A DNA stretch of 60,864 nt, counting the filler, from Deltaproteobacteria bacterium (GTDB lineage Bacteria; CG2-30-53-67), in assembly GCA_013151235.1 (NCBI GenBank). It is 5 parts of 5 records of this genome, joined end to end, with 100 filler letters (N's around TTAATTAATTAA, not from the genome) between each part and the next. Parts side by side here need not be neighbours in the genome. Positions count along the whole stretch, not along the records: positions 42,237 to 54,838 come from JAADIO010000073.1; 4 more parts are not named here. One strand, 5' to 3'. The notes beneath the pieces were generated by a model. It had not been told where the DNA came from, searched no databases, and saw nothing but the letters and a program-made list of their open reading frames with translations. The position numbers were made by a program, and so were the translations under genes. Of this stretch, positions 3,807 through 54,938 are shown one piece after another. Numbering within the stretch: the stretch's first letter is position 1; the number at the start of each line of letters is the position of its first letter.

Positions 3807-3818
3807 GGAGGATTTCAT

Positions 3819-4322: not shown

Positions 4323-4394
4323 GGGCTTTGATGAAATAGTTACCGATCCATCAAGCACGATTGGGGGCGGCGCGACGAAAGGGGGTCTAGGGAA

Positions 4395-4607
4395 ATGGAT
4401 TGTCCGAAATGCGGTGCACGAAAGATGTCTGTGGATCAACCGGTTTATTTCAACAAAGACAACCAGGAAGGGGGCTTTCTGTACCAGGAGAAGATTTACC
4501 GTTGCCGGCTCTGCGGGAAGATGCTCTTCGTTCATAAAAACTTACAAGTAAGCAAGAAAAAGTTTATCAAAGGGCAGGTAATTACCGGCGGGTACGAAGA
4601 TCTGTAA
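4395..4607 (+). CDS. Small zinc-ribbon hypothetical protein
   Basis: CPKC...CRLC pairs in 70 aa. Confidence 0.6.
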
Positions 4608-4663
4608 GGGTGGTGCCCGTCAACCGTTTTATGCGACAATCACAAACAGGAAAGGAGAACGGG

Positions 4664-4825
4664 ATGCAGAAGTGGACTTGTACGGTGTGCGGTTATGAGT
4701 ATGATCCTGAAGTGGGTGATCCGGACAATGGTGTGGCGGCAGGGACGGCCTTTGAAGATGTTCCCGAGGATTGGGTCTGTCCGATCTGCGGAGCGGGGAA
4801 GGATCAGTTCGAGGTGAATGCGTAA
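4664..4825 (+). CDS. Rubredoxin
   Basis: [23 protein letters not shown]...[22 protein letters not shown]. Confidence 0.97.
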
Positions 4826-4871
4826 GAAAACTGAGCGGGGCGTTCGAAGACCGGCTCGCCCGGAGTGAAAG

Positions 4872-6503: not shown

Positions 6504-6564
6504 TTTTGGGATTCATCCACTACTGCCGGTGGTGGATTGACCCCGGGATTCAGGGAGAAAACCA

Positions 6565-7053
6565 ATGATCCGAGGCAATGAAGATATTCCCGAGGCGCTG
6601 TTGAACGCCTTCCGGCTGGAGAAGGGCGCTCAGGCGTTTTACCTCTCCGCTGCGGAACGGATCTCCGATGAAAACGGGGCCTCGATGTTCCGTCGTCTGG
6701 CGGGGATGGAAGAAAAGCATATGCACGAGATCTACAGCCTCTACAACGGGTTTCAAGGAGACCGGTCCCCGGTCTCCTTGCAACAGTTCAAGGAGGAGAT
6801 CTCCGCGGAGTTCATGGAAAGCGGCGGAAAGATTGAGGCGGCTCTTTCCGATGTGAGCGGGCGCTTCTTTTTAGACTCCCGTGAAGTTCTTCGGCTTGCG
6901 CTGAAAGAGGAAGAGGCCGCCCGGAAACTCTATCTCCGTCTGGCGGAGCGATCCGAAGATTCCGGTACTGCCTCGCTCTATCGGAACCTGGCCGAGGATG
7001 AAATGGCCCATATGGAGATGATCCGGGAGGCACTGGAGCGGAAGGGAGGTTGA
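6565..7053 (+). CDS. Rubrerythrin/ferritin-like protein
   Basis: E.GA..FY / LAGMEEKH and EEAAR.LY / LAEDEMAH motifs. Confidence 0.85.
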   Translation: MIRGNEDIPEALLNAFRLEKGAQAFYLSAAERISDENGASMFRRLAGMEEKHMHEIYSLYNGFQGDRSPVSLQQFKEEISAEFMESGGKIEAALSDVSGRFFLDSREVLRLALKEEEAARKLYLRLAERSEDSGTASLYRNLAEDEMAHMEMIREALERKGG

Positions 7054-7060
7054 TGGAAAA

Positions 7061-7660
7061 TTGTATATCCTGGGTCTCTCCGGAAGTCCGAGGCGTCATG
7101 CCAATTCGGAATCGTTGCTCGATGAAGCCCTTCGGGGCGCCGAAGAGACGGGCGCACAAACGGAAAAGCTGATCGCCTCCCGATTCCGGAAACTCCTCCC
7201 CTGCGTGAATTGCGGGCACTGCCGCAAGACCGGTCGTTGTATCGTCGATGACGAAATGCAGGAGATCTATCCAAAGCTTGAGGCGGCCGACGGCCTCATC
7301 GTGGCCTCTCCCGTCTATTTCATGAATGTCTCCGCCTTCCTGAAAATCCTCATTGATCGGTGCCAGTGCTACTGGTCCCGTAAATACGTTCTCCGGGAGC
7401 CGCTCTTTCCGGATTCTCCCCGGCGCATCCGCAAGGGGCTTTTCCTGTCCACCGCAGGTCACGATCTTCCTTTGGTTTTCAGGGGCGCCCGGATGACCGT
7501 CCGGTCGATGTTTGATGTTCTTGAAGTGGAATACATGGACGAATATTTTGCCCTCTCCATCGAAGACCCCGGTGATGTACAAAAGACGCCGGACGCGATG
7601 GAGACGGTTTATCAACTGGGGGGGCGTCTGGTTCGAGCCTTGGGGGAGTGTGAAGAGTGA
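7061..7660 (+). CDS. Iron-sulfur flavoprotein / NADPH-dependent FMN reductase (flavodoxin family)
   Basis: GLSGSPRR..NS, PCVNCGHC...C...DDEM and ASPVYF motifs. Confidence 0.88.
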   Translation: MYILGLSGSPRRHANSESLLDEALRGAEETGAQTEKLIASRFRKLLPCVNCGHCRKTGRCIVDDEMQEIYPKLEAADGLIVASPVYFMNVSAFLKILIDRCQCYWSRKYVLREPLFPDSPRRIRKGLFLSTAGHDLPLVFRGARMTVRSMFDVLEVEYMDEYFALSIEDPGDVQKTPDAMETVYQLGGRLVRALGECEE

Positions 7661-9054
7661 ATGAGAAAAACAGGGAAGAAAAAGATTCTCTGGGCAGCCG
7701 GGAACTTCCGGCAGAGGCCTATTACGGCATCCAGACGTCCCGTGCCCTGGAGAATTTCCCCGTCAGCGGGCTGAAGGCGCATCCTTTTTTTGTCCGGGCT
7801 TACGTGTTGATTAAAAAGGCGGCCGCCGGGACCCATGAAACGCTCTCCCTCCTGGATGCGGAGACCGCCCATGCCGTCATCACCGCCGCCGATGAGGTCC
7901 TGTCCGGACGATTCGCCGACCAGTTCGTCGTCGATGTCTTCCAGGCGGGGGCGGGGACCTCCTTCAATATGAATGTGAACGAAGTCCTGGCCAACCGGGC
8001 GCTGGAGATCCTGGGGGACCGGAAGGGAAATTATCAGCGGGTCAGTCCCAACGATCATGTCAACAAGTCCCAGTCCACGAACGACACCTTTCCCACGGCG
8101 ATGCACATTGCCTCGGTGATGCTTTTGCGGGAGCTTCTTCCGACGCTGTCCGGGCTTGCCCGGGCCCTGCGGGAAAAGGGCGATGAATTTGCGGGGATCA
8201 TCAAGTCGGGACGGACCCATCTTCAGGATGCCGTGCCGGTCACCCTCGGCCAGGAGTTTACGGCCTATGCAAAGGCCGTGGAGAAGGCCGCGGACAGATT
8301 GCAGCGGAACGAAGAGGCGCTCCGGGAACTTTCCATCGGCGGGAGCGCCACGGGGACGGGGTTGAACGTTCCGGCCGGTTACCGGGAGGGAATGATCCGG
8401 CGACTCTCGGAACTCACGGGAATTCCCTTCCGGCCGGCGGAGGACCTGCGGGAGGCGATGCAAAGCCGCTCGGCAATGACCTCTCTCTCCTCAACCCTTC
8501 GAAACCTTGCCGTGGAGCTGACCCGGATTGCCAACGATCTTCGCCTGCTCAGTTCCGGACCCCGAACGGGGCTGGCCGAGATCCGATTGCCGGCCGTGCA
8601 ACCCGGTTCCTCGATCATGCCCGGTAAGGTCAATCCCGTTATGGCGGAATGTCTGAACATGATTTGTTACCAGGTGATTGGGCATGACCATGTCGTAACC
8701 ATGGCCGCCCAGGCCGGGCAGATGGAACTGAATGTGATGATGCCGGTGATGATCCACAATCTGCTGAGTTCCATGGAGATCCTGAAGAATTACCTTCCCC
8801 TTTTTACAGAGAAATGTGTGGAGGGGATTACGGCGAATCCGGAACGGTGCCGGGCCTATTTTGAAGGCAGTGTCGGCCTCGCGACGATTCTCAATACCCA
8901 TATCGGCTATCTTGCCGCTGCGGAGCTGGCCAAGGAATCGGAAAAGACGGGCGTTTCCGTCCGGGAACTGATTCTGAAGAAAAATCTTCTTTCTGCCGAA
9001 GAGCTGGACCGGATTCTCGATCCGGACCGGATCACAGGGCAGGGGGGAGCATGA
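7657..9054 (+). CDS. aspA: Aspartate ammonia-lyase (fumarase/aspartase superfamily)
   Basis: GSSIMPGKVNP signature, QAGAGTSFNMN, SQSTND, GRTHLQDA; class II fumarase not excluded. Confidence 0.8.
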   Translation: MNEKNREEKDSLGSRELPAEAYYGIQTSRALENFPVSGLKAHPFFVRAYVLIKKAAAGTHETLSLLDAETAHAVITAADEVLSGRFADQFVVDVFQAGAGTSFNMNVNEVLANRALEILGDRKGNYQRVSPNDHVNKSQSTNDTFPTAMHIASVMLLRELLPTLSGLARALREKGDEFAGIIKSGRTHLQDAVPVTLGQEFTAYAKAVEKAADRLQRNEEALRELSIGGSATGTGLNVPAGYREGMIRRLSELTGIPFRPAEDLREAMQSRSAMTSLSSTLRNLAVELTRIANDLRLLSSGPRTGLAEIRLPAVQPGSSIMPGKVNPVMAECLNMICYQVIGHDHVVTMAAQAGQMELNVMMPVMIHNLLSSMEILKNYLPLFTEKCVEGITANPERCRAYFEGSVGLATILNTHIGYLAAAELAKESEKTGVSVRELILKKNLLSAEELDRILDPDRITGQGGA

Positions 9055-30504: not shown

Positions 30505-30604
30505 NNNNNNNNNNNNNNNNNNNNNNNNNNNNNNNNNNNNNNNNNNNNTTAATTAATTAANNNNNNNNNNNNNNNNNNNNNNNNNNNNNNNNNNNNNNNN
30601 NNNN
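30505..30604. other. Artificial contig linker
   Basis: N run + TTAATTAATTAA + N run, 100 nt. Confidence 0.97.
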
Positions 30605-37781: not shown

Positions 37782-37881
37782 NNNNNNNNNNNNNNNNNNN
37801 NNNNNNNNNNNNNNNNNNNNNNNNNTTAATTAATTAANNNNNNNNNNNNNNNNNNNNNNNNNNNNNNNNNNNNNNNNNNNN
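37782..37881. other. Artificial contig linker
   Basis: N run + TTAATTAATTAA + N run. Confidence 0.97.
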
Positions 37882-42136: not shown

Positions 42137-42236
42137 NNNNNNNNNNNNNNNNNNNNNNNNNNNNNNNNNNNNNNNNNNNNTTAATTAATTAANNNNNNNN
42201 NNNNNNNNNNNNNNNNNNNNNNNNNNNNNNNNNNNN
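42137..42236. other. Artificial contig linker
   Basis: N run + TTAATTAATTAA + N run. Confidence 0.97.
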
Positions 42237-42463
42237 GCAAAGGGCGTCCTCCCCGCCGGAAGGGGATTCTTGAAGATCAGAGCGTAGGGACAGCGCACCG
42301 AAACGAGGCATTCTTCACAGGACTGTCCCCTCCGCCGACAGACCATCCGCTGAAGCATCTGTCCCATCCCCCCCCGGAGAGTGGACCCCTTGTAGGGAGG
42401 AAGGTTCAATCGTTCCCGGGCACGGATCTGAAATGAATATGCGGAAAAAAAGAACGAATCCAT
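42237..42463 (-). CDS. cas6: CRISPR pre-crRNA processing RAMP endoribonuclease Cas6 (3' truncated)
   Basis: LPPYKGSTLRGG.G..L...VC......C..C.....CPY..IF N-terminal motif; position at the end of a RAMP operon. Confidence 0.8.
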
Positions 42464-42471
42464 TCGGTCTC

Positions 42472-43269
42472 CTATAAAGCTTCAAGCCTCCCGGCAAGGA
42501 AACGGAGGATCTCCTCCCCTTCCCGGGAATGGCATTCCTTGAACCAGTATCCCCGCTGTGGAAGGGCACCGCCGTACACTCCGCCGGGGAAACGCCTGTC
42601 CAGAAGATGGATCCACTCCCCTTCCCCATAAAAGTCCACCTCCGAAGGACAAAGGATGAGAAGGTTCTGGACTCCAGGGCCACCGAGGACGGACTCCATT
42701 CGGTCCGTCACCACGGCCGTCTTCGTGTGCGGAAGCCTGGCCAAGGTCAGCGCCCCGCCGGCAAGGGTCGAGGCCTCGGAGACGGCACGTTCCCCAGCCT
42801 GTTCCTCTTCCTCCGTGATCCCCTGAGCCTTCCGGTCGGCGGCGCGAACCTGTATGATCTCTTCCTTCGTGGCCCCGATTTCGATCATGGCAGGGATATA
42901 TCCCCGGTCGTTTTCGGCAACAAGATCGAATTCTCTCGTCCACCGTTCCGGGGGAAGACCGAGTAGGGAGAAAACCTGATGGAGCGACGTCGGACGGTCG
43001 GCCCCGGCCTTCTTCCCATGGTGGTCGATCTCAACGATTTGATCCGGGTCGAGACCGAGATCATTCGGAAGCTCCACCAGCACGGGGGTCCTCCCCTTCT
43101 GCAGGGTGCCGGTGATTTCCTCCCTGTAGGCGGAAGCGGAGACCTCCGCTCCCCAGGCAAGCCCCTTGTCAAAGAAAGGGACCCCCTCCCGGCAGAGCAG
43201 TTCCGCTATCATCTCCATCTCGAGGTCATGTCCACCGAGAAAAAAAGTATAAGAAGATTCAACCATCAT
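42472..43269 (-). CDS. NrN-like DHH-family phosphodiesterase (candidate SAM-AMP degrading enzyme)
   Basis: FFLGGHDLEM, IDHH, TSL.QV, ANDRGYIPAM-like, IRxxDRxAQG-like motifs; located inside a CorA-containing type III operon. Confidence 0.75.
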   Translation of the reverse strand: MMVESSYTFFLGGHDLEMEMIAELLCREGVPFFDKGLAWGAEVSASAYREEITGTLQKGRTPVLVELPNDLGLDPDQIVEIDHHGKKAGADRPTSLHQVFSLLGLPPERWTREFDLVAENDRGYIPAMIEIGATKEEIIQVRAADRKAQGITEEEEQAGERAVSEASTLAGGALTLARLPHTKTAVVTDRMESVLGGPGVQNLLILCPSEVDFYGEGEWIHLLDRRFPGGVYGGALPQRGYWFKECHSREGEEILRFLAGRLEAL

Positions 43270-43280
43270 CCATCCTTATT

Positions 43281-45758
43281 TCAATACTTTTTCAAAGTTG
43301 GAAGATTCGTGCTTGCCCTATTTAATGGCCTGAGAAAATCATGTCTCCTCTTGTCGTTTTCCACAAACCACTTGAAGGTCTCATCCTCCGGACCCTGCCC
43401 CTGGACGAGGGGGGTATGGACAGGCTCGGTTACCTTTGCAGGATCGCCCAGGAGTTCCAGGGCGGGTCGGATGTCTTCATTCATCTTATCCCGGAATCCC
43501 TTGCGGAAAGCATCATAGGTAATGGCACCTGCAACTTCCGCCTCTGCAACTTCTGCCTCTGCCTCTCTGCCATATCGCCCCGGCCAGTCTTCCGGAGCAT
43601 CCTCCTTCCGCCAGACCTTTGCATAACGTGGCGAGGAGAAGATCTCATCCGTCGTATACCGATCTTCACGGTTTACCAGAAAGAGTCCTATCGGATCGAT
43701 CCGGACCTTCCCGAGGCCGATCGGTTTCCCCGTTCCGATCTTGTGGCGGAATGCCTCCGTCGGCCGGAGTGCGTAGCAGAGAAGGCCCAGTTCCCTTTTG
43801 CTCAGGTTGTCGAAATCGACATGAAAGTAAAAGACCGCTCCAGCACGGACGGGAGTGACACTTACTTTCTGCTTGCAACGGTCTTTCTCCTCGCAGGGGG
43901 TCGGTGGCTGTGGATCCGTCTTCCAGCACTCCTTCTCTAACTGGTCTGAGCTGTGATGGAGATAGAACTTCCTTCCCTGGGGATGATGACTCCCCGGTTG
44001 CAGATCCTTCTTGGCGATGTAGGCCCCCTGCCCGTCGGACTTCTTGAAGTAGAGGGCCGGGGAGGGGGGCTTGGGGGAGTCGAGGATCTTCAGGACCACG
44101 GGATCGAGATAGGGGCTGGCCTCACGACCGATGGGGGTCTGTCCGTCCTGATCGGTTATTCCCTCGAAGAGGGCGTCGGCAAAGCGAACCCGCCCCGCAA
44201 GGGCGCGTGCGGTATCCCGCTCTTTCTCCTTCCCCTCCTCAACAAAACCGAAGAGCTGTTCGGCGAGGGTGATCTGCTTCCTTTCTCCATTGAAGGGAAG
44301 AAGTTCTTTATCGACGGCCCGAAAGAAATCCCGGCCTCGTGCGCCTTCCATCCTGTTATTTACGATCCATTCGACCCGCCCCCGCCAGATGGAAGAAAGG
44401 GAGATCTCTTCAATGGTATTCCAGCGGGGATGCGGCTTGAAGAAAACGAGGTCTCCCTCCTTGAGACGGAACTTCTTCCCGTCATTGGCTGGATCCATAT
44501 TCCGTTTAGTATCCTTCGGCTCATAGGGGAGCTTCCCGTTCTCATCGGCGTCGGTCCTTGCGTCGGCCAGTTCATGGAAGCGATTCACGACATCATCGGG
44601 AATCAAGAAGGCCTCCCAAGCTTCCGGTTTCTCCGGACAAGGGATAAAGATTTCGTGTTTCTTTGTATTCGGGATGGCCCGGTCGCCCCAGCAGCCGAGG
44701 ACGCGGATGATCCCGCGGGTGTAGACGCTCCGTTCGTGATCCGGAATCTCGTCCCAGGGACGGGGAACTGCATCTTCACGCGCCTTCTGTGAAACAAGAA
44801 ACGAGTTTCTTGTTACATGCAACTGTGCATCGCCACACAATTCATGACTCCCGGTCCAGCTCCGCCTCTGAAGCTTCATTCCGTAATACTTCGGACTATC
44901 GGCACGGAAGGTCCGAAAAGTGAAACGTCCCGAATTTCGAATACTCAATCTATCTCCGATATAGACCTTGAGGTTCGGTTCGGGGAACATATTCTGATAT
45001 TCTGCGGGAAGGGGGAACCTATCGTTATTATTCTTTTGCAAGGTAGGAAGGGTAAGAGGAACAAGAAAATATTTATCCTGACCACCTTTTTCTTTCTCAA
45101 CATGGATCATCCCGATGGCGGAGAGGCTCTTTGTCATTTCCTTTCGGTAAGAATAAGGATATTCGGATCTTTCCAACACCCGCAGTGCCGAATTGCTCGC
45201 CGCCTCGGCGATACTTGAAATCAACCCTTTAAGGGTCGTGGCCGGGACGGCGGGCTTCCCTCCTCTTTCGTAGGGGGCGACGCAGGCGGGGCATTCTTGC
45301 TTACCCTTCCTCACGCGCTTTGCCCCGACAAAGATCGGGCTCTCAGACTTTAACCGGCAGACGATCCGGCCGGAATAGCTACCTTCCACATATCGGTCGT
45401 GCCTCACATGTCCGTTTTCCTGACTATCGAACTTCTCAACGCTCAGATCGGCCGGCCTGTTGTCTTTCAGGACCGGAACGAAATGGTAGGGATTATGAAA
45501 CTGCGGGGCATCGTCCATCCGCCCCCGGCCTTCTCCCCGCCCCTGGGGGTGCGCCCTCTGACGTAACGGACCCGGCCCGGCTCCATAGTGTCTCGTCTGG
45601 AGACCTTGCTTCCTTTTTTTCTTTTTTTTCTTTTGCTTACCCGGTGACGATCCGCTATCTTTTTTCGACCCTCCCTGGGCCTGTACCGATTTTTCTTCCC
45701 TGGGTGCAAGGCCCCGTTTCCTGCGCATCTCTTCCTGCCATTCCCTCATATCAACCAT
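43281..45758 (-). CDS. Large insertion-containing Cas7/RAMP (TIGR03986-like, type III-D)
   Basis: FHNPYHFVP, SG.I.C.L....PIFVG, PATTLKGLISS..EA, LFG.V, GRKFY.H, G-rich loop GTGKPIGLG. Confidence 0.85.
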   Translation of the reverse strand: MVDMREWQEEMRRKRGLAPREEKSVQAQGGSKKDSGSSPGKQKKKKKKRKQGLQTRHYGAGPGPLRQRAHPQGRGEGRGRMDDAPQFHNPYHFVPVLKDNRPADLSVEKFDSQENGHVRHDRYVEGSYSGRIVCRLKSESPIFVGAKRVRKGKQECPACVAPYERGGKPAVPATTLKGLISSIAEAASNSALRVLERSEYPYSYRKEMTKSLSAIGMIHVEKEKGGQDKYFLVPLTLPTLQKNNNDRFPLPAEYQNMFPEPNLKVYIGDRLSIRNSGRFTFRTFRADSPKYYGMKLQRRSWTGSHELCGDAQLHVTRNSFLVSQKAREDAVPRPWDEIPDHERSVYTRGIIRVLGCWGDRAIPNTKKHEIFIPCPEKPEAWEAFLIPDDVVNRFHELADARTDADENGKLPYEPKDTKRNMDPANDGKKFRLKEGDLVFFKPHPRWNTIEEISLSSIWRGRVEWIVNNRMEGARGRDFFRAVDKELLPFNGERKQITLAEQLFGFVEEGKEKERDTARALAGRVRFADALFEGITDQDGQTPIGREASPYLDPVVLKILDSPKPPSPALYFKKSDGQGAYIAKKDLQPGSHHPQGRKFYLHHSSDQLEKECWKTDPQPPTPCEEKDRCKQKVSVTPVRAGAVFYFHVDFDNLSKRELGLLCYALRPTEAFRHKIGTGKPIGLGKVRIDPIGLFLVNREDRYTTDEIFSSPRYAKVWRKEDAPEDWPGRYGREAEAEVAEAEVAGAITYDAFRKGFRDKMNEDIRPALELLGDPAKVTEPVHTPLVQGQGPEDETFKWFVENDKRRHDFLRPLNRASTNLPTLKKY

Positions 45759-47235
45759 GGACCGCCTCCTTTTGCAACTCCGCAATCTTTTGCCGGAATT
45801 GTTCTACAACCTCACTAACCTGAGGATTCTCCGCTTTCCACCAGTCCCCTGTTATCTCCGCCCGGCTGGCCCCGTACCCCTTGGTCGCGCCGAAACCGAA
45901 GGTGATGTCTCCCTCAATGAGGTCCCGGAGTGTCAGGGCAAGGAGGCCCCGCATCCAGGGCTCGGTCCGGGAACAATCGACTGTGATTTTCCCGGTCAGG
46001 CGCGGTTCCAGGACCGACAGGGCGTTGAACTTGGCGCCGTGGGCTCCGCCGCCGGTAAATCGGTCGATGGCAAGGAAATCCTGGAAGAAGCCGCTCGCTT
46101 CCTCTTCTGCCTGGACGAAATCGGTCACCTCCAGCGGAGAGCGCCAGCCGGCGGCTCCGAACAACCTGCAGGCGGGACAAAGCCGGTCCACTTCCTCGGG
46201 ATAATTGAGCGACCGGCAGCAGGGATCGCTGTCGGAATGACAGGCGGCCTTATCCCCTCCGAGGGTCCGGAGGATCCGCTCGGCCTGGCTCCGGAAGGCC
46301 CCGCGGAATGAGCGTGAGGGGAGATAGGCCCGGCTGTTCCGGTCGAGGATCGGCGCGTGATCGGGATGTGTTTCATCGCTTTCCTGCTCCTTGTCCTTCT
46401 TTTCCGGGCATCTGCTCGGGTCATTCACCAGGAAGGGGGAATCGAATGTGAGTGTTACATCAAGGACGATCTTTTCGATCGAAGGCTTGGCCGGAGAGCC
46501 GGCCTTTGGCTTCAATTCGTCGATCTCATCTTCCCCAAGTTCGGCGAAGGGAAAATCTGCCTGATTCTCTTTCTTGATCCATTCCCGGACGGCCTCGCCG
46601 GTCGCACGACGGACCTTGCCCAACTTCCATGAGAGCCTCCCCCACCCGTCTCCCGTGGAGGCGCCGAGGGTGACGGGGTCGTCCGGATCGTTGAATCCCT
46701 CCAGGGCATGGAGCAGGATCCCCACCTCCTCCTCGTCAAGGCCGCTGCCGGTGATCGTAACGGTAAAGGGGACGCCGGGGGGGACAAACTCATAATGTCT
46801 CAGCTTCTTCGCGCTCGCCGTCCGGGTCACCCGGTCGATGGCGACGGAGGCGGCCGCACCGGTATGCCGCACCGCATCCCAGTAGGGAGGTGGATTCGTC
46901 AGCTTGACATCCTTGATATAGGCATAATGGAATTCGGCCTTTCCCCCTACGGCATCTTTCTTCTTCGTGTCTTCGCTTCCAAGGAGTTCATCAAGCTTAC
47001 CGTTCGCCCAACGCCGCTTCAACCAGGCCCGGAGGTCTCCCTTGAGGGTCGAGCCCGGGATACAGGCACGATCCTCGTAGTCGGTAATCACCGACGAGAT
47101 GTCGATTTTCTCCTTTTTGCCGTTTTCGTTCTCTTTCGTCAGTGCATCCCGTTCCGTGGTGTCGCCGTCCCCGATATGGAGGGGAGAGTCCGTCGTCAGT
47201 GTTCCCGTGATCTTCCATCGTACCGGAAAGCTCAT
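45751..47235 (-). CDS. Cas7-Cas7 tandem RAMP fusion (Csm3-like x2)
   Basis: Two RAMP units: SPLHIGDG/IPGSTLKG/AIDR.T/LGA..G.GWG and SPFLV/LP..SFRGAFR/CPACRLFG/AIDRFTGG/FG.TKGYG. Confidence 0.87.
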   Translation of the reverse strand: MSFPVRWKITGTLTTDSPLHIGDGDTTERDALTKENENGKKEKIDISSVITDYEDRACIPGSTLKGDLRAWLKRRWANGKLDELLGSEDTKKKDAVGGKAEFHYAYIKDVKLTNPPPYWDAVRHTGAAASVAIDRVTRTASAKKLRHYEFVPPGVPFTVTITGSGLDEEEVGILLHALEGFNDPDDPVTLGASTGDGWGRLSWKLGKVRRATGEAVREWIKKENQADFPFAELGEDEIDELKPKAGSPAKPSIEKIVLDVTLTFDSPFLVNDPSRCPEKKDKEQESDETHPDHAPILDRNSRAYLPSRSFRGAFRSQAERILRTLGGDKAACHSDSDPCCRSLNYPEEVDRLCPACRLFGAAGWRSPLEVTDFVQAEEEASGFFQDFLAIDRFTGGGAHGAKFNALSVLEPRLTGKITVDCSRTEPWMRGLLALTLRDLIEGDITFGFGATKGYGASRAEITGDWWKAENPQVSEVVEQFRQKIAELQKEAVHG

Positions 47236-49075
47236 GATGCCCCTCCTTTCTTCGCAAGGTCGATCAGTTTCCCGTCATGGACCGGCAGGTTGACGGCGAT
47301 CTCGCCGTATCCGTTCTCCGGTATGTAGGGGCAGTTCGTCCAGTGGTCCCCTTTTTGGCCGTTCCGGGCGTACTTTTTTATCGCCCACGCCGGGAGGGGA
47401 AGCCCCTCTTTGAGCCATTTCTCGATCATCCGCTTCCCGTCCGCTTCCTTGCCGGTCTTCGCCTTGAGGACGAAGACGCTCCCCGCCTCGGTCAGGAGGT
47501 AGGGGTTGTAGGGTTTGCCGTCCTGAAAGCGTTTCCAGAGGTAGAATCCCCCGGCAAGGCTCTGGCGGGCATAGAAATGGGAGAGTTGCAGAGTCCTGTC
47601 GGAAAGCTCTTCCCAGATCTCTTCGTAGGCCTTCCTCAACTCGGCCTCGCCGCTTGTCTCGTCCAACTTCTCCGGATCGAAAAGAATCGCCGGTGTCTGG
47701 AGGGTGACGATCCAGAGTCCATTCTCGGCCTCGGCCTTCGAAGGGAAGTACGACGTGATCGACTCTTGCTTCTTCGGGACCTCCACATCAACGGCCACCT
47801 TGGTCTTCCCCATTCCCCGCAGACCGACGGCAAAGAGCCCGGCAAGCTGTTCGGCCACTTTGGATCGATCCGAATCACCGACCCGGGAGAGATCCACACC
47901 TCCGATCCAGCAGCAACCGTCGGGGCGAACCATCTCGTAGGCGAAGAGCTGTTCATCGGCCGCCTTGCGACGTTTTTTTTCGATGGCGGTCCGCACGCGT
48001 AATTCCGTACCAGGCGTCATCCATCCGAAATATTCATCCACATCCCCCCGCTCCTTCCAGTCCACATCAAATTTCGGGGCCACGGGAGGACCCTCGGGAC
48101 AGGCTGCCTCCTCCTTCCGGGCCATATCAGCTAAATGGATTTTCTCATTCTCTTTATACTTCACCAGCGAAAGGGGCGGACGGACGGGACGCTTTGCACT
48201 CCCCTCCGGGGCGGGAAAGGCGTGGAGAAAACGGATCTTCGTGAAATTCCTGCAAAGCTCCGGTCGTGTAGCGTCGAAATCGTTCGTGATGAAACAACTA
48301 TCCTTCCCCAGAAGATCCGCCCACGTCCGGGCCAGCGCCCCGGCAAGGGCCGCGCCGGGGATCTCGGTCTTCGATTCGAAGAGATTGTTCCCCACCTTAC
48401 GGTCGGCAAGACAGAACGGGGACTTGGGCCGGATTATAAGTGGGAAAGAGAAATCGGATGGTGGAGTGGTCTTTTGATCCTCGATCTTTCTTGTTGTGAG
48501 TTCTATTTTGACACCATCCAGTCTCCCGAAACCGACGGTCCGTTCCGCACCAAGGCTCGGGATCCAGCGCAGGCCGGTCTCGCACTGCCCCTTGACTTTT
48601 TCAGCATTTTCAGTCGAGGGCGCCATGAAACGGACCGTACCGGAAAAGGAAACCCTTTCGCCCGGTGCAAAGGGGGCTTCGACAACCTGGTAGGCCCCCT
48701 TGTCCACAGCGCCCCGGCATTCGTCGATCCGGATCCGGAAAGCGATTCCTTCCCTGTCCGCCCCATCGTGTACGAAGTCGTCGAAATGGAGTCGCCCCTG
48801 GACAGGCTCCACACCTCCCGGCCCGCTCCCGGATTTTTTTCCAAGGAGGCTTTTGATTACGGTGTCAGAGATGAAACCGGAATCGGCAAGACACAACTCG
48901 TCCCAGGCGCTTCCCGAAGACGCCCCTTCACGAGGGTGCCGGGCAGATAGTAACGGTCCTGCCGGTCCTTCGCCATGGGGGAATCGATACCGTACGGCCC
49001 TGCCGCCGTGGAATGGGTCAGCACCGGGCCTATCAGTTGCAGCGTGATCTTCATCTCAGCGTCATACATCCCCAT
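47232..49075 (-). CDS. Cas7-Cas5 fusion (Csx10-like RAMP), interrupted by a 2-bp frameshift at about 48907-48910
   Basis: LPGTLVKGRLREA in one frame continues as WDELC in another; later GAERTVGFG, IPGAALAGALA, RTAI, GMGKTK, TEAGSVF, NGYG motifs. Confidence 0.8.
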
Positions 49076-49081
49076 ATCCTC

Positions 49082-50521
49082 CTATTCAACAAGGTAGTCC
49101 CACAACAGTGCAAGGTGAAGCCAGCGAAGGACCTCGCCGCCGAAGGGGTCCTTCAAGTCTTCCAGCGCTTTTTTTGTCTCAAGGTCAAGACTCTTGATGG
49201 TCTTCTCGATCACCTTTATCGTTCCGGGATCTCCGCGGGTCAGCCCCTTCACGATGGCATAAAGCTTCCTGCGGGGGAAATTCTCCCGGAGTACAGCAAC
49301 CTTATCCAGAGCGCTCCCCATCTTCCCTCCCTCCAGGATCATATCGTCCGGCGAACAGCCGTTGGGGCAAATCTCACGCCGGTAGCCCATCAGGTCCCGT
49401 CCGATATGGTCGAAGGACTCGAGGACCTCATAGGCAAAGAGGTTTTCCTCACGGCTCTTCTCCTTGGCCAGTTCGGCCAGATCCTTTGCGAGCTTCGTGA
49501 TCCGGTGGATCGGAGCGTTGTGGTGACAAAAGACGATGCCGCCGCCGTGCGTGAGCCGGTTCCCATGAAATTCCCAGCTCTCCGATTCTTCATAGAAGCG
49601 TTTCAAAACCCGCCACCCAAGCCAGGCCGGGACAATCCAGATGATCTCGTCCCCGCCCCAGAGCAGGGTCTCCAGTCGGTAGTTATCTTTTGCCGAGATC
49701 CACTCCTTGCGGTCCTTCATCTCCGACAGCAGGGTCTTGAGAAATCCCCGACGGTAGTTCTTGATCGTGGTATCAAAATCTTCCTGGAGTTTTCTTGTGT
49801 TACAGACATCGCTCTGGAGACCACCGAAGCCGTTCCCATCGAGGTAGATGACAGCCATCTTGTGATGAAGGTTCCCCCGGGAACGATCCGAGGTAAGCTC
49901 GTCGAAATCATTGGCAAAGTTCAGGGGAACCAACTCCGAAGCTTTCTTTTGATCTACCTTTTTGAGCTTGACCAGTTCTTTCCTGTAAAATTCCTGCTTC
50001 TCTTCACGGCCGTATTTCCAGCGTTGCCAGACCGACTCGCTGATTTTCTTACCTTTAGGCCCAGCCTTCACGGCAGGCCGTACGCCGTCCAGTTCGCAGG
50101 GGACAACATTTTTGACTCGACTGGTCTTTGGAACAGCCACGGTCGGGGACCGCATCTGCTGGAAACGGTTCTTCGCAAGCAGCGTCTCCCGGACCGTGAT
50201 AAAGTCATCTTCGGCCCTGAGGAAATCAACGACAAAGGTGGCGTGTTTGAATCGAGGATCCTTCTTCAGACAATCCATCACAGAGTTGCAAATTTGTCTA
50301 GCTTTGGAATCATCAGCGTCACCGTCATCCATCTCAAAGCGAAAAAGTCCGGAAGAGGCGCCCGTGGTGACCGGTTCCAGCCGGGGTACGCGTTTCTGAA
50401 CATGACCCACAGCGTCGAGCATCAAGAGACTCCCCCCCCGGGCCGTGCTCAAATCCTGGGTATCGAAGACAAAGTTCAAGAGGTTTACCCCCTCCATGCG
50501 GAGATAGTAGGTTGCCGTCAT
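49082..50521 (-). CDS. cas10: Compact Cas10 (Cmr2/Csm1 family), no HD domain, GGDE palm motif
   Basis: N-terminal palm EGVNL.NFVFDT.DL...RGGS; second palm AVIYLDGNGFG...LWGGDE...LTHGGGIVF....PI......A..L...AK. Confidence 0.85.
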   Translation of the reverse strand: MTATYYLRMEGVNLLNFVFDTQDLSTARGGSLLMLDAVGHVQKRVPRLEPVTTGASSGLFRFEMDDGDADDSKARQICNSVMDCLKKDPRFKHATFVVDFLRAEDDFITVRETLLAKNRFQQMRSPTVAVPKTSRVKNVVPCELDGVRPAVKAGPKGKKISESVWQRWKYGREEKQEFYRKELVKLKKVDQKKASELVPLNFANDFDELTSDRSRGNLHHKMAVIYLDGNGFGGLQSDVCNTRKLQEDFDTTIKNYRRGFLKTLLSEMKDRKEWISAKDNYRLETLLWGGDEIIWIVPAWLGWRVLKRFYEESESWEFHGNRLTHGGGIVFCHHNAPIHRITKLAKDLAELAKEKSREENLFAYEVLESFDHIGRDLMGYRREICPNGCSPDDMILEGGKMGSALDKVAVLRENFPRRKLYAIVKGLTRGDPGTIKVIEKTIKSLDLETKKALEDLKDPFGGEVLRWLHLALLWDYLVE

Positions 50522-50539
50522 GATCCCTCCTTTCGTTTA

Positions 50540-52092
50540 TTACTTCTTCTTTGGCTTCTGTCGCGCAAGCCTGTCAAAATACTTGTACAGACGATTGGAA
50601 CACTTTATAGTCAGGAGCAACAGAAAGGTCGATCCTGCCATGGTCAATATGAAGACCAGCCACGAATGTTTCTTCCAATCCATTATCCAGATATTCATCC
50701 CCAGGAACCCCGTGGCCACGGCCAGGACCATCCCCACCGTAGCAACAACGGTCAGGCGTGTGGTCGCCCTGGTCTCCTGCTCCGCCTCCTGGATCTCGAG
50801 GTATTCATGGCTGCTGTTGATCTCCTTCTCTACTTCCTCGAAGAGTTCATCCACATCCATATGCTTCCGAGCAAGAGTATACATCTCGATCGCCTGCTGC
50901 TGGTTGGATAGGAGGGGAAACTGATAGAGATTCGCGAAAAGGGAAAAGTTCCAACGAAGTTTATCGAAGGTTTCATGCCAGTCCTTCTCCCCCTTTTCCC
51001 TCGCATCGGCGGAAATCTTGCTAAGCGCCCCGCTGAACCGGAAGAGGACCACCCGGATATAAAGGAGAAGAANNNNNNNNNNNNNNNNNNNNNNNNGAAG
51101 TGTTCGCAAAGATTCGGATCAGAGTCCGGCGGAGCCAGCATTGCGCCGCTATGATAATTGAATCCATAAAAAGTTCCCTCCTCTTCCCATCGCTTGTAGG
51201 TCCGCTCTTCGGCCCATTCCCGTTCAAAAGTCCGGCTGAGGTGGGTTGCATAGGGTGAATCCCCAGGCGCATCGACATTGAGCAGTTTGATCCAATGGCC
51301 CAGCTCCCAGGGCTTTAAGAAATGCCCATATTGACGACGAAGATCACCCCCTCCATTAGGCAGGATGGCACAAGCCCAGGTGAAAGTGCGGTTATCGGCA
51401 TAAATCAGGTCGGTGCTGAATCTGAAAGTTTTACCCTGGCAACAAATCGGGAATCGTAAGAATGATTTCCAACGTTCGGCATAGAGATCCTGTTCCGGTT
51501 TTATTGCTCTGTCAGCAAGAGTCTCTTTAGATCCGAATGATGCAGGTATGTCCCCCATTAAATCCAACAATCCTTTGCATTCATGCCGGTCAAAAGGTCG
51601 TTCCCAATACCGAAACTGTTCATTTAATTCCAGCAAATCATCCAAGGTCGGCATATCAAGTGATGTATCTTCTGGAACTTTTGTAAAAAAGAGTTCAATG
51701 ACCAGAAAACCGACCTGGAGCAGATCGCCTCCTTCGGGAATGTCGCGCCGTTCTTCCTCTGTGTATTCAAACAGGACAAGTCGTGGCTTCGACATGGATA
51801 TCGGCAGTATTCTGCCTTCCCTGAAATACATGGGATAGGTCCAATCCCATTCTTTGTCTACCTGTTCCAGTTGAAACCACTTCGCCCTTTTGAAAAGAAC
51901 TTTCCCTGTTTCAGGGGTAAAGTATTTCTCACGCCAATAACGATCCTCATGAATTTCTTTCCACTGGTAATCGGTATCGGAAGTACCTTTTCGAACATTC
52001 AGTCGTTGCAAGCTGTAGGCAAAGGGAAGAACAAACCGGGTAAAAGATGCAGGTTTTTCGTGTTGCGGTTTGCCATATTCAAGTTTAAGCAT
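50540..52092 (-). CDS. CRISPR-associated CorA-family membrane effector (spans a 24-N scaffold gap)
   Basis: Large soluble N-terminal domain, SNQQQAIEMY helix, two C-terminal TM helices with the CorA signature GFLGMN; RBS GGAGGTGG before ATG 52092. Confidence 0.82.
51073..51096. other. Scaffold gap (24 N) inside the corA-like gene
   Basis: Plain N run without the linker sequence. Confidence 0.95.
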
Positions 52093-52276
52093 TCTCCACC
52101 TCCCCTGCTTGTCACAATAAATCAGTAAGCCGCTTTGTATTTCACCAACGTGAAATAGAAAGCGGCTTTTTCGATACTCCCCCTCTTGGCAGACATAAGG
52201 CAGTAAGATAAGAGCATGGCTTTCTGAATTTCCCGCAGTCAGGACCACCAAGGCTGGTTTGATCCCTGTTTGCAAC

Positions 52277-52306
52277 ATCATAAACAAATATATTGACGTA
52301 TGACAA
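52277..52306 (-). promoter_or_regulatory. Putative promoter of the corA-cas operon
   Basis: TTGTCA-18 bp-TATGAT in an AT-rich stretch. Confidence 0.4.
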
Positions 52307-52478
52307 GAAAAACTTACCTCTTATGCATAAAGGGACGAAGGCGAAAGGGTCTATTCCCACAATGCGGATTTTGGGAGGTCGTCCTATACCAGCCACCTGA
52401 ATGGCTGATTACAACTTCATCACGATACAGTTGCCGCTGGCGGCATCCTTCCCTAACCGGCTTCGCAGGTGGTAAGCA

Positions 52479-53423
52479 TCACTTTCTCTCCTTCCGCCGC
52501 ACATGCTGTCTCCCTTCCAGGCTCCCGGCACATCGAAATCCAGTTACCTCGTTCCGATCGTCCGGCTCATCTCCGATGCGGTCCCATGCACTGAAGAATC
52601 CCGGTTCAAACAGCCATGATCTTCCCCTGATCACACGTTTCGTCCCTCTGAGCGCCCCCCTGGGGTTATCCTTCGGGCTCCGTCCGTAATAGCCCGCGTC
52701 ATACCAGTCCACACACCACTCGAAGAGATTGCCCACCATACCGTAGAGGCCGAGACTGTTCGGCGGGAAGCTACCGACCGGGGATGTCGATCGGTTGTCC
52801 CACTGTGAACCGCAACCATTGCACTCGGGATCGCCCAGGAAAAGGGTGTCTCCCCGCGGTTTTTTCCGATTGCGCATATTCCTTCCGCCCCTTGCCGCAT
52901 ATTCCCATTCCGCTTCCGTGGGAAGGCGTTTGCCCACCTTTGTACAGTAGGCTTGGGCATTGAACCAGGTCACGTTTTCGATCGGATGCCGCATCCCTTT
53001 GAAGTGCGAAGGGTTCCTGCCCATCACACGCTGATAGGCCGCCTGCGTCACAGGGTACCTGTCGATATAGAAGTCATCCAGGCAGATCTCGTGGGCCGGT
53101 TTTGAATCATCATCACAATCGCTCGGCCAGGTTCCGCATCCCATCCTGTAACAGCCGCCTCTCACCAGGACCATCCCCCGGGGCGCCGTTTCCCGTTTCG
53201 TCCCATCTTTTGACAGCTTGCGCGCGGAGACGGCGCTGCCTTGTGGAGCGATATGGCCGCTCGCCCGATTCCGGTCGGCGGCGGATAAAGATGCTCGTCC
53301 CGCCGGAATGACCAGGAACAGACAGAGAACGATCATGATCTTCCTCCGGAGCAAAATGCCCCGTTCCCGCCGCTCCGTTCCACGATCTTTTTCACGGGCT
53401 TCCTGCGGATTACGTATTTGCAT
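52479..53423 (-). CDS. FGE-sulfatase (SUMF1) domain protein, probably secreted
   Basis: MV.V.GG...MG, P.H...LD.F.ID.YPVT, P..NVTW, RLPTEAEWEYAARGG, N.LGLY.M.GNLFEW, RVIRG.SW, GFRC; hydrophobic N-terminal segment. Confidence 0.9.
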   Translation of the reverse strand: MQIRNPQEAREKDRGTERRERGILLRRKIMIVLCLFLVIPAGRASLSAADRNRASGHIAPQGSAVSARKLSKDGTKRETAPRGMVLVRGGCYRMGCGTWPSDCDDDSKPAHEICLDDFYIDRYPVTQAAYQRVMGRNPSHFKGMRHPIENVTWFNAQAYCTKVGKRLPTEAEWEYAARGGRNMRNRKKPRGDTLFLGDPECNGCGSQWDNRSTSPVGSFPPNSLGLYGMVGNLFEWCVDWYDAGYYGRSPKDNPRGALRGTKRVIRGRSWLFEPGFFSAWDRIGDEPDDRNEVTGFRCAGSLEGRQHVRRKERK

Positions 53424-53613
53424 CGCCGTTCCCTCCTTTCTTATTCATAAAGACGTCCATGAAGTTGATTTTGTTGCACTATGGCCGGGGGTAGAGTGCA
53501 TGCCGCCGGCCCCTTGAACATTACGAAAATTCTGAGAATCCGGAAACATGCCGGAGGTGTCATTATGATACAATTCACAAACTAACTCCGGCGATCGGTA
53601 TGTTCGATCATAA

Positions 53614-53957
53614 CGGGACTTTCTCGAAATCCTGGAGAACCGCCACGGCATGCGATCGACCCTCCTGACCAGCCGGGTCCCGGCGGAACAGTGGCATGAA
53701 CGGATGAAAAACCCACCCTTGGCCAATGCCATCCTGGGCCGTCTCATTCATAACGCCTACCAATCCGACTTGGAAGGAGAACTGACGCGGAAGAAAAAAA
53801 GGATTGACTTGCCCCATGGAAAAGAGGTAGCCCTATCGGAGAGGCGTCGCGGGGCGAAGACGGGTGATCAAAGAACACCGGAATCGGTGTGCAAACCCGA
53901 TCGGGATGAGTGTCCAACAAATTTCAGGATGGGTGTTCAACGTCATCAGGATACGCA
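53614..53957 (+). mobile_element. IS21-family remnant: istB 3' fragment plus right end
   Basis: RDFLEILENRHGMRSTLLTSRVP.EQWH....P.LANAILGRLIHNAY...L.GE..RK resembles the IstB C-terminus; followed by repeated gtg...gga motifs ending ...GGATACGCA. Confidence 0.78.
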
Positions 53958-54145
53958 TGATACTTGTTGAATTGCGGATCCTAGGGCATGTTGGTGTTCA
54001 TTGCGGCTTCCTTTTCGTAATAGATGTAAGCGGCATATTCCTCTTGCTCTGCCACATTCTTTTTATTACGAATAGTAATGATATTGCAAGATGTTAATCA
54101 TGCAGGAAAGTATTTGCTGGGAGTTGCCTGCCGCGTAGCGGGTTC

Positions 54146-54217
54146 GTCCAACACGCAGGTGAAGTCGGACAGGTATTCCGCTGCGCTCTATACCTGCCGC
54201 TACCCGCACCGTTAGCC
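54146..54217 (+). other. Integron attC recombination site
   Basis: Begins GTCCAAC (RYYYAAC), ends GTTAGCC, imperfect palindrome with inner caggtat/atacctg around ccgctgcgct; 72 bp. Confidence 0.7.
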
Positions 54218-54219
54218 GA

Positions 54220-54316
54220 TGAACTACCGCGCCGCAAGCAGCGGGGTATCAACTTCTCTATTTCGGTACATCACTCGCAGCAAGCTGCGGGGAATTAGAC
54301 CCTAAAAGAGATTAAA
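54220..54316 (+). repeat. Short twin-hairpin MITE-like element just after attC
   Basis: Direct repeats cgccgcaagcagcgggg and cgcagcaagctgcgggg, each able to form a hairpin. Confidence 0.5.
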
Positions 54317-54326
54317 GGGAGCATAC

Positions 54327-54838
54327 ATGAGATTCGATAGGAGAGAGAATAAAGAAATTACATATTATACAGATATCATTGAAGAGGCAGTTTATAACAA
54401 AGATTGCCAAAAAATAGAGGCCATCATTGAAGAGCTTTGGTTTGATAAGAAATCAGACGGTACTTGCACAATAATGATAGGCCCGTGCGATATCATTAAC
54501 CCAGATCCTTGCATTGTATGTGGAGCACAAATAGAGGAATTTAACTCAAGTAAAAAGGAAAATGGCATATTATTTAAGTTCCTTGACAATTTCCGATACG
54601 CCCACGCACCCACTCGAAGAGGTATCAGTTTTTGGCTGTGTCCAACGTGTGCTCCAAAGGGAGTTGCTGTGGATTTTCACAATATTCGTCTCAATATTGA
54701 GTCAGTGCGTCCCTTGACAGATGCCCTCCAAGACTTCTTGTTCAGAAATTCAATGAATGAAATTCATCAGGAACTTAATCTTCTTGTTAAAGACAAAAAT
54801 TCATATTTTGACAACCCGCTTCCTGGAAATATGATTAT
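54327..54838 (+). CDS. Low-GC hypothetical protein with CxxC...CxxC (cassette-like; 3' truncated)
   Basis: Open frame with GGGAG RBS; visibly AT-rich relative to flanking genes; CIVC and CPTC pairs. Confidence 0.65.
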
Positions 54839-54938
54839 NNNNNNNNNNNNNNNNNNNNNNNNNNNNNNNNNNNNNNNNNNNNTTAATTAATTAANNNNNN
54901 NNNNNNNNNNNNNNNNNNNNNNNNNNNNNNNNNNNNNN
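54839..54938. other. Artificial contig linker
   Basis: N run + TTAATTAATTAA + N run. Confidence 0.97.

Follow-up and report, generated by a model that had tools for sequence, protein, structure and literature searches.

A minimal HD-less Cas10 from a CorA-linked type III-D locus, predicted to belong to the SAM-AMP-making family

The DNA analysed here, referred to as the window, is a stretch of 60,864 nucleotides, filler included, from the Deltaproteobacteria bacterium assembly GCA_013151235.1. It contains a type III CRISPR locus encoding a minimal, 479-residue Cas10 protein. Based on homology, this Cas10 is very likely the large subunit of a CorA-linked type III-D effector complex and a member of the family that, like the solved type III-D2 Cas10, conjugates S-adenosylmethionine (SAM) with ATP to yield SAM-AMP. 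The window Cas10 matches chain B of PDB entry 9wxh (also chain B of 9wxi and 9wxj) with an E-value of 3.5e-80 over residues 4-45 and 49-477, and the profile of its family matches the same chain with an E-value of 4.8e-139. These entries represent the type III-D2 complex of a gammaproteobacterial metagenome-assembled genome (Mitsuda et al., Nat Commun 2026, PMC13294483; cited throughout from the available part of its text). According to that text, the complex makes SAM-AMP as well as SAM-AMP2, forms no product from ATP alone and carries its GGDE motif at residues 345-348. Synthesis is abolished by the single mutations D286A, D307A, D347A and E348A as well as by the double mutation E8A/Q186A, and growth arrest by the system requires CorA. 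Every residue essential in the III-D2 Cas10 is also present in the window Cas10, including E8 and Q186, which correspond to E10 and Q122 (Table 1).

A preliminary description of the locus, made from the sequence alone, had proposed that a retained acidic catalytic pair beside a remodelled first palm domain fits altered substrate specificity rather than simple decay. Residue mapping to the III-D2 Cas10 identifies the remodelled first palm as the SAM acceptor site and the acidic pair as the two-metal site, and the existence of a SAM-using homologue with the same residues, as described in the available text of PMC13294483, supports altered specificity. The idea of an altered substrate is right but was already in print in June 2026.

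Table 1. Residues of the III-D2 Cas10 and their equivalents in the window Cas10. Roles are those given in the available part of PMC13294483. Residues were mapped by hand from the alignment; the inferred chain number equals the number used in the paper plus 20.
III-D2 Cas10 (paper numbering)	Window Cas10	Role in the III-D2 Cas10
E8	E10	SAM recognition
N11 / L12	N13 / L14	SAM recognition
S29	S31	SAM adenine contact
L33	L35	SAM adenine contact
G121 / A122 / S123 / W124	G54 / A55 / S56 / S57	adenine pocket; S123 touches the SAM adenine
Q186	Q122	SAM recognition
D286 / G287	D228 / G229	Mg2+ ligands
F290	F232	adenine pocket; backbone phosphate contact
F306 / D307	F249 / D250	adenine pocket / ATP specificity
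G346 / D347 / E348	G290 / D291 / E292	GGDE hairpin; D347 and E348 are Mg2+ ligands
H400 / N401 / H405	H334 / N335 / H339	3' anti-tag contacts
K420 / K425	K353 / R357	contacts with AMPPNP phosphates in the non-productive states
D439	D371	recognises G(-1) of a non-cognate anti-tag

Fold, motifs and family conservation of Cas10

The Cas10 protein is encoded on the minus strand by an open reading frame (ORF) with an ATG start and zero internal stops. It is recognized by Pfam PF22335 (Cas10-Cmr2_palm2; 29.8 bits, cut-off 27) and by the PADLOC Cas10 model (7e-30), and the NCBIfam type III-A Cas10 model gives 15 bits, far under its threshold of 170. An AlphaFold2 (AF2) model based on a 119-sequence alignment has a mean predicted local distance difference test (pLDDT) value of 95 and a predicted template modelling (pTM) score of 0.93. 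The model opens with a Palm1 strand (residues 2-12), has no N-terminal HD domain and ends in a helical bundle. In a Foldseek comparison with a copy of the PDB reaching to April 2026 and lacking 9wxh, all 50 matches listed were Cas10, Csm1 or Cmr2 chains, the best among them being the HD-less Synechocystis III-Dv Cas10 (template modelling score 0.70-0.72, identity 14-15%). There is no room for an HD domain, because the upstream CorA gene stops 18 nt before the Cas10 ATG. Together with alignments to homologues, which begin at residues 1-5 of the query, the model and the short gap bear out the earlier claim that the protein starts directly at Palm1; the LWGGDE, YLDGNGFG and TTGASSG motifs pointed out at the same time are all present in the intact protein. 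The genes directly downstream, namely Cas7-5, Cas7-2x and Cas7-insertion, encode effector subunits of the Cas5/Cas7 (RAMP) type. An N-terminal HD nuclease domain occurs in many Cas10s but is not obligatory. In the available part of a survey of 1,113 type III loci, an HD domain is reported for only 3% of type III-D Cas10s (PMC11229360).

Homologues of the window Cas10 are numerous. A word-indexed protein search scored 8,000 candidates, of which 916 reached E<=1e-3; the best 120 range from 459 to 575 residues in length, nearly all of them spanning 96-100% of the query. When 1.84 billion cluster representatives were scanned exhaustively with HMMER, 1574 matched at E<=1e-3 and 884 at E<=1e-30. In a 120-row alignment consisting of the window Cas10 and 119 homologues, the catalytic motif reads GGDE in 118/120 rows and GGDD in 2/120, DGN is invariant, and the residues of the TTGASSG loop that line the adenine pocket are almost unchanged (G54 120/120, A55 117/120, S56 120/120).

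Genomic context was assessed in 87 related loci, comprising the 80 nearest of 439 metagenome matches to the profile of the window family and 7 genome loci. Since these loci are the nearest relatives of the window family, proportions derived from them are biased and are not population estimates; the fetch pattern itself stopped at WGGD and thus did not bias the fourth motif residue. GGDE was found in 82 of the 87 loci (81 WGGDE and one YGGDE), GGDD in three and AGDE in one, with the remaining locus being cut before the motif. All three GGDD loci have CorA. GGDE is conserved in homologues, and the possibility raised in the preliminary description that close homologues all carry GGDD can be set aside.

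The same holds for the residues of both nucleotide sites among the 80 Cas10 family members from the related loci, to which all residue counts out of 80 refer. SAM-site residues are E10 in 79/80, N13 in 80/80 and Q122 in 80/80, and the TTGASSG loop retains G54 in 79/80, A55 in 78/80 and S56 in 80/80. Catalytic and ATP-binding residues are D228 (80/80), G229 (80/80), F232 (79/80), D250 (73/80) and D291 (80/80), while the position of E292 holds E in 78/80 and D in 2/80. The family numbers more than 1,500 sequence clusters, and GGDE, E10 and Q122 are near-universal among its members.

The role of GGDE itself deserves comment. A function of the motif as a specificity switch was considered and is ruled out by the SAM-AMP synthase of Bacteroides fragilis, which has two aspartates, D328 and D329, at the acidic pair (PMC10600005). 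GGDE is not the determinant of SAM use, because this enzyme manages without it; in the present family the motif is conserved and catalytic, yet not the reason for SAM use. GGDE is also among the motif variants of Cas10s adjoining known effectors in the available part of the 1,113-locus survey (PMC11229360), so that both HD loss and GGDE are already on the published record.

The zinc ribbon is the third unusual feature of the protein. The family profile aligns the CxxC...CxxC of the Saccharolobus type III-D Cas10 (8bmw chain K) to residues 142-161 (overall E 5.4e-5), with C142 corresponding to the first cysteine, D145 to the second, about K158 to the third and S161 to the fourth. Of the earlier description of a ribbon reduced to CELD...SESV, the degeneracy stands, only the first cysteine being kept relative to 8bmw_K, but SESV is not the second CxxC, as K158-S161 maps there. 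AF2 confidence is lowest at this relic (pLDDT 73-81). The relic is nevertheless conserved, both in the 120-row alignment (C142 120/120, D145 118/120, S161 118/120) and among the 80 family members (C142 78/80, D145 77/80, S161 72/80). The lack of an HD domain, GGDE and the remnant of the zinc finger are all conserved across this Cas10 family and are not private oddities of the window protein. C142, D145 and S161 are almost invariant though the zinc finger is lost, for which the available text of the published structure offers no explanation; there, zinc is named for Cas7.3 and never for Cas10. The Linker domain, at whose start the relic stretch lies, binds the 3' anti-tag according to the same text (PMC13294483).

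Linkage to CorA and NrN and proposed function

The gene directly upstream of Cas10 encodes a CorA-family membrane protein. It contains a run of 24 N (51073-51096), and the reading frames on the two sides differ. The soluble N-terminal part matches PADLOC CorA (1.6e-9) and a profile from related loci (384.6 bits). The C-terminal piece, which lies in the other frame and extends to 50540, comprises two hydrophobic helices flanking a GMN motif and matches Pfam CorA with 29.2 bits (cut-off 27). A 485-residue ORF (50830..52287) was considered as the complete CorA and rejected: its tail past the N run lacks a hydrophobic segment, the real C-terminus being in the other frame, and the ORF is an artefact because the frame shifts across the N run. 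As the bases in the run are undetermined, the frame change is not interpretable. A sequence search of CorA against solved structures gave no match at E<=0.1.

The opposite end of the operon encodes a DHH phosphodiesterase of the NrN family. It matches the solved NrN 9lq9_A (E 3e-30), keeps the GGHDLEM and IDHH motifs and is recognized by the PADLOC models C3a116 (5.7e-72) and DHH_CorA (4.1e-43). NrN of B. fragilis cleaves SAM-AMP and neither cyclic oligoadenylate (cOA) nor pApA, and is inactivated by mutation of D85/H86/H87 (PMC10600005).

Linkage of these genes to Cas10 was surveyed with profiles built from the window proteins and iterated over six-frame ORFs of the 87 loci. For 54 loci the sequence reaches at least 2 kb upstream of Cas10; CorA was detected in 44 of them, and in 37 it lies directly upstream on the same strand. 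In 28 loci, where the sequence reaches at least 2 kb upstream as well as 6.5 kb downstream, 22 have CorA, 15 have NrN, 13 have both and 4 have neither; a fused CorA-NrN ORF occurs in 3 of these 28. According to the 2025 CRISPR classification, no SAM-AMP-cleaving enzyme is known from III-D CorA loci (PMC12669027), a remark that may need revision given NrN in 15/28 fully assessable loci. Across the whole survey, single ORFs matched by both the NrN and the CorA profile were seen in loci L004, L005, L013, L028, L035, L046, L061 and L070; NrN-CorA fusions have been reported in type III-B loci (Chi et al. 2023, PMC10600005). Another related locus, L085, has tandem CorA-like ORFs (3437-5305 and 5781-7862) upstream of one Cas10.

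By analogy with the characterised systems, we infer both the chemistry of the window system and its effect on CorA as follows. A crRNA-guided complex of Cas7-5, Cas7-2x, Cas7-insertion and Cas10 would bind a foreign transcript, whose non-complementary 3' anti-tag would enter the Linker channel of Cas10 and cause Palm2 to shift against Palm1. Donor ATP would be positioned on two Mg2+ ions held by D228, D291 and E292, while acceptor SAM would be held by E10, N13, L14, S31, S56 and Q122. Attack of the SAM 3'-OH on the ATP alpha-phosphate would yield SAM-AMP, which may then open the CorA channel and lead to cell arrest. NrN would hydrolyse SAM-AMP.

Cas7 subunits, locus layout and state of the system

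The window consists of five contigs, C20, C23, C25 (first 4,255 nt), C28 and C30, joined end to end as established by blastn against the genome. The joints are at 30505-30604, 37782-37881, 42137-42236 and 54839-54938, each spacer consisting of 12 bases with 44 N on either side. C28 carries the complete type III locus in the order CorA, Cas10, Cas7-5, Cas7-2x, Cas7-insertion, NrN, all on the minus strand (Table 2). The cysS and cobalamin genes seen in the window are not true neighbours of the CRISPR locus, because they sit on other contigs. C28 ends 235 nt past NrN. Upstream of CorA, it carries an FGE-sulfatase-family gene (52479-53423, Pfam 9.4e-55) and a short fragment of IstB, an IS21 helper (53650-53970).

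Table 2. Features of the type III locus, in window coordinates.
Feature	Position	Strand	Basis or assignment
Contig C28, 12,602 nt, carrying the whole type III locus	42237..54838		blastn against the genome
CorA-family membrane effector gene, about 582 codons	50540..52287	-	PADLOC, Pfam, family profile
Cas10, 479 residues, HD-less: Palm1, Linker, Palm2, C-terminal helical bundle; predicted SAM-AMP synthase	49082..50521	-	
E10-G-V-N13-L14, Palm1 acceptor (SAM) site	50480..50494	-	E8/N11/L12 of the solved enzyme; alignment to 9wxh_B
TTGASSG loop of Palm1, residues 52-58	50348..50368	-	G54/A55/S56 = G121/A122/S123 (adenine pocket; SAM adenine contact)
Q122	50156..50158	-	Q186 (SAM carboxylate recognition); alignment to 9wxh_B
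CELD...SESV, zinc-finger relic (C142, D145, S161), residues 142-164, start of Linker	50030..50098	-	profile alignment to 8bmw_K
YLDGNGFG, residues 226-233, Palm2	49823..49846	-	D228/G229 metal ligands; F232 backbone phosphate contact
LWGGDE catalytic hairpin, residues 287-292	49646..49663	-	D291/E292 = D347/E348; alignment to 9wxh_B
Cas7-5 (Cas7.1-Cas5 fusion) gene, frame broken	47232..49075	-	matches to 9wxh_C
Interval of the Cas7-5 frame change	48881..48908	-	sequence reading and ends of homology
Cas7-2x (Cas7.2-Cas7.3), 494 residues	45751..47235	-	9wxh_D, Pfam RAMPs
Cas7-insertion (Cas7.4 with INS/CTE), 825 residues	43281..45758	-	9wxh_D, TIGR03986
NrN-family DHH phosphodiesterase, 265 residues, predicted SAM-AMP degrader	42472..43269	-	9lq9_A, PADLOC

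The gap between the Cas10 stop and Cas7-5 is 6 nt with no gene in between. Cas7-5 is broken into two pieces: an N-terminal piece of 72 residues (48857..49075) that matches residues 2-54 of 9wxh_C (E 7.5e-7) and keeps the catalytic-loop Asp, and a body of 554 residues in another frame (47232..48896) that matches residues 91-609 (E 1.3e-105). The two parts share one frame in 7/7 genome loci and lie in one ORF in 63/67 loci, the other 4 representing no match and not a split, and so the frame change is private to this genome. It may reflect a mutation or an assembly error; no public sequencing run was listed for the genome.

Cas7-2x matches residues 17-460 of 9wxh_D (E 6.1e-83) and Pfam RAMPs (1.5e-37), while Cas7-insertion matches residues 519-661 and 727-1200 of the same chain (E 9e-92) and TIGR03986 (3.6e-85). 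No ORF lies between the effector genes, and there is no separate Cas11 gene. The 35-nt overlap of the two RAMP ORFs (494 and 834 residues) was considered as a possible frameshifted fused Cas7x3. This was rejected: the Cas7-insertion ATG is preceded by the ribosome-binding site AAGGAGG and overlaps the Cas7-2x stop, and in 35 of 46 informative loci each of the two regions has an ORF of its own, which makes the overlap a natural boundary. The first ~90 residues of Cas7-insertion (45480-45758) are of Lys/Arg/Gly-rich low complexity, in part from long A runs, and are the equivalent of the Cas7.3-Cas7.4 linker of fused proteins. Two related loci depart from this arrangement. In L003 (13217-16667), the Cas7-2x and Cas7-insertion regions fall into many short frames, which suggests an error-prone assembly or a decayed copy. 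In L031 (3961-9855), one frame of ~1,965 codons, counted stop to stop, matches the Cas7-5, Cas7-2x and Cas7-insertion profiles together, with Cas10 and CorA upstream and NrN downstream; from its sequence, it looks like Cas5 fully fused to all four Cas7 domains, which would be a step on the way to single-protein effectors.

A 9-residue loop bearing W351 in the III-D2 complex is absent from the window Cas7-5. In that complex, W351A abolishes SAM-AMP2 and raises SAM-AMP (PMC13294483, available part). Of the 11 loci with fused Cas7x3, 5 have the loop; of the 35 split loci, none does. NrN is missing in 9/11 fused loci and present in 16/24 split loci with enough downstream sequence. In a quick, unrooted maximum-likelihood tree of 81 Cas10s, the W-loop loci form one clade (Shimodaira-Hasegawa-like approximate likelihood ratio test, SH-aLRT, 99) nested among split forms, and at least 4 changes between fused and split are needed. 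The window Cas10 falls into a weakly supported group (SH-aLRT 89) of 13 rows, 11 split, 2 undetermined and 0 fused. We tentatively propose, giving it somewhat less than even weight, that the form with split Cas7-2x and Cas7-insertion, with NrN and without the W351 loop is, in this sample, the commoner form of the CorA-linked III-D lineage and makes SAM-AMP only, with the fused, dual-messenger III-D2 being a derived side branch. The split/NrN form may also be the older one. No paper describing it was found, and the supplements of PMC13294483 may show it.

Regarding crRNA supply, the genome (2.62 Mb, 73 contigs, completeness 99.25%) has a sole detected CRISPR array on contig C70, extending from base 8 to about 613 and cut by the contig edge. 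Its 36-nt repeat has a periodicity of 72-77 nt and is present in at least 9 copies; C28 contains no copy of it. The only cas6 detected in the genome, of Cas6b type, lies on contig C31 beside a Cas8b fragment. Array and cas6 sit beside or near type I-B genes; no cas1 was detected in the genome. The type I-B fragment (C31, 1-3260) comprises Cas6b and a Cas8b-like ORF that continues beyond the contig edge, and upstream of it are a WYL/WCX-domain protein and a HIRAN-domain protein (PADLOC PDC-M03B). It is common for type III modules to rely on the cas6 and arrays of a co-resident type I system, and the type III module described here may borrow its crRNAs from the I-B system. A search of 40 related genomes, 2 from the same genus and 6 from the same family among them, did not find the window Cas10, which fits horizontal acquisition.

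Alternative explanations and comparison with known systems

Several observations weigh against assigning the window Cas10 to a functional CorA-linked SAM-AMP system. Of the 54 assessable loci, 10 have no detectable CorA; these 10 retain E10, Q122 and the catalytic residues. A Palm1 insertion of ~70 residues in the solved Cas10 (chain 64-135) is absent from the window protein, and W124 of the solved enzyme corresponds to S57; the W124A mutant of the III-D2 Cas10 stays active (PMC13294483, available part). The position of S29 is Gly in 47/80 family members, and the anti-tag contacts are moderately conserved (H334 59/80, N335 52/80, H339 47/80). C28 has no cas6, neither Tandem Repeats Finder nor a repeat search of gene-poor gaps found a CRISPR array on it or elsewhere in the window, and Cas7-5 is frameshifted here only, among 68 family members examined. 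Lastly, for the split-Cas7/NrN branch, the window protein included, SAM-AMP synthesis is a prediction from homology.

Two other chemistries could be envisaged. The Cas10 fold with its intact two-metal site would also suit a conventional cOA cyclase that underwent a harmless GGDD-to-GGDE change and feeds a cOA-sensing effector, and the available part of the 1,113-locus survey lists GGDE among the variants of Cas10s beside known effectors and speculates that one Actinomyces CorA clade senses cyclic hexaadenylate (cA6; PMC11229360). However, the characterised homologue yields nothing from ATP alone, and the acceptor-triphosphate positions of type III-A Cas10 (D253/K379 of Lactococcus lactis Csm1), which are E and Q in the III-D2 family (PMC13294483, available part), are likewise replaced by E (79/80) and Q (80/80) here. 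Considering also that no CARF, SAVED or Csm6-type match was found among the C28 ORFs scanned and that the operon holds NrN, of a SAM-AMP-specific phosphodiesterase family, a cOA cyclase is highly improbable. We regard it as very unlikely, too, that Cas10 joins ATP to an acceptor other than SAM or makes a product series that is neither plain SAM-AMP nor SAM-AMP2, as the SAM- and ATP-contacting residues of the solved structure are all kept and the window NrN is clearly homologous to the one that has been solved. Such a deviation would be in line with the lack of a detectable sequence match between the window CorA and any solved chain, with the low identity of III-B and III-D2 CorA proteins (only 12-15%; PMC13294483, available part) and with the absence of the Palm1 insertion, W124 and the Cas7-5 W351 loop.

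A different question is whether the locus is a decaying remnant in which Cas10 is intact, the complex no longer forms and nothing is synthesised in vivo. Because of the Cas7-5 frame change, the complex may not assemble as encoded and the system may be inactive in this genome; none of the other 67 members was seen in two ORFs. The lack of an array, cas6 or cas1 on C28, the IstB fragment upstream, the failure to find this Cas10 in the 40 related genomes and the differing CorA frames across the N run would all agree with decay. On the other hand, Cas10, Cas7-2x, Cas7-insertion and NrN are full length with their conserved motifs all kept, a single frame change could stem from a misassembly or from one variant strain within a metagenome bin, the frame change in CorA spans undetermined bases and is not interpretable, and the genome has a type I-B module and a 36-nt-repeat array that could serve the type III module. 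On balance, we consider decay less likely than not, but a real chance. It would bear on the state of the locus in this genome rather than on what the protein is, and may hold alongside the assignment of Cas10 as a SAM-AMP synthase.

With Cas10 assigned to the SAM-AMP-making family, the closest parallels are with III-D2 (9wxh). Shared features are the HD-less Palm1-Linker-Palm2-CTD (C-terminal domain) build, the catalytic GGDE, the metal ligands, the ATP-specificity Asp, the SAM-recognition Glu and Gln, CorA directly upstream and a Cas7-5 fusion partner. The deposited III-D2 Cas10 chain has 592 residues (~20 of them extra at the N-terminus, as judged by residue matching), in contrast to 479 in the window protein. 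Cas7x3 is one protein in III-D2 and two genes, Cas7-2x and Cas7-insertion, in the window, and the W351 loop is found on the III-D2 Cas7-5 but not on the window protein. In addition, III-D2 encodes a VapBC-like toxin-antitoxin module where the window has NrN; no PIN or VapBC match was found among the C28 ORFs scanned, the contig ending 235 nt past NrN. The biology of this Cas10 is already known from the 2026 enzyme, and what differs is the locus variant: split Cas7, NrN and no W351 loop. A minority of the loci examined have the published III-D2 architecture; most relatives carry NrN and lack the SAM-AMP2-linked element. The survey thereby offers a prediction as to which type III-D systems rely on a single messenger and which on two.

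The first SAM-AMP synthase described, the type III-B Cas10 (Cmr2) of B. fragilis (Chi et al., Nature 2023, PMC10600005), also signals to a CorA channel, with NrN degrading the signal, and its acceptor site likewise has acidic or neutral residues in place of the triphosphate-binding ones. However, it is part of another effector backbone (Cmr1-6), its acidic pair is D328/D329 as compared with D-E in the window protein, its specificity residues are D70/E151 as compared with E8/Q186 in III-D2, and PDB sequence searches gave no significant match between it and the window Cas10. The Synechocystis III-Dv Cas10 (8s9t-8s9x chain C) is HD-less and, as in the window, accompanied by separate Cas7-2x and Cas7-insertion proteins; it shares 14-15% identity with the window protein and matches the window family with a profile E-value of 0.0012. 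III-Dv has Csx19 and a Cas7-Cas5-Cas11 fusion (PMC13294483, available part), whereas for the body of the window Cas7-5 the III-D2 chain was the sole match at E<=0.01. The Saccharolobus type III-D Cas10 (8bmw chain K) has a homologous Linker and Palm2 (profile E 5.4e-5), but comprises 829 residues and has an intact CxxC...CxxC, of which the window Cas10 keeps only the first Cys.

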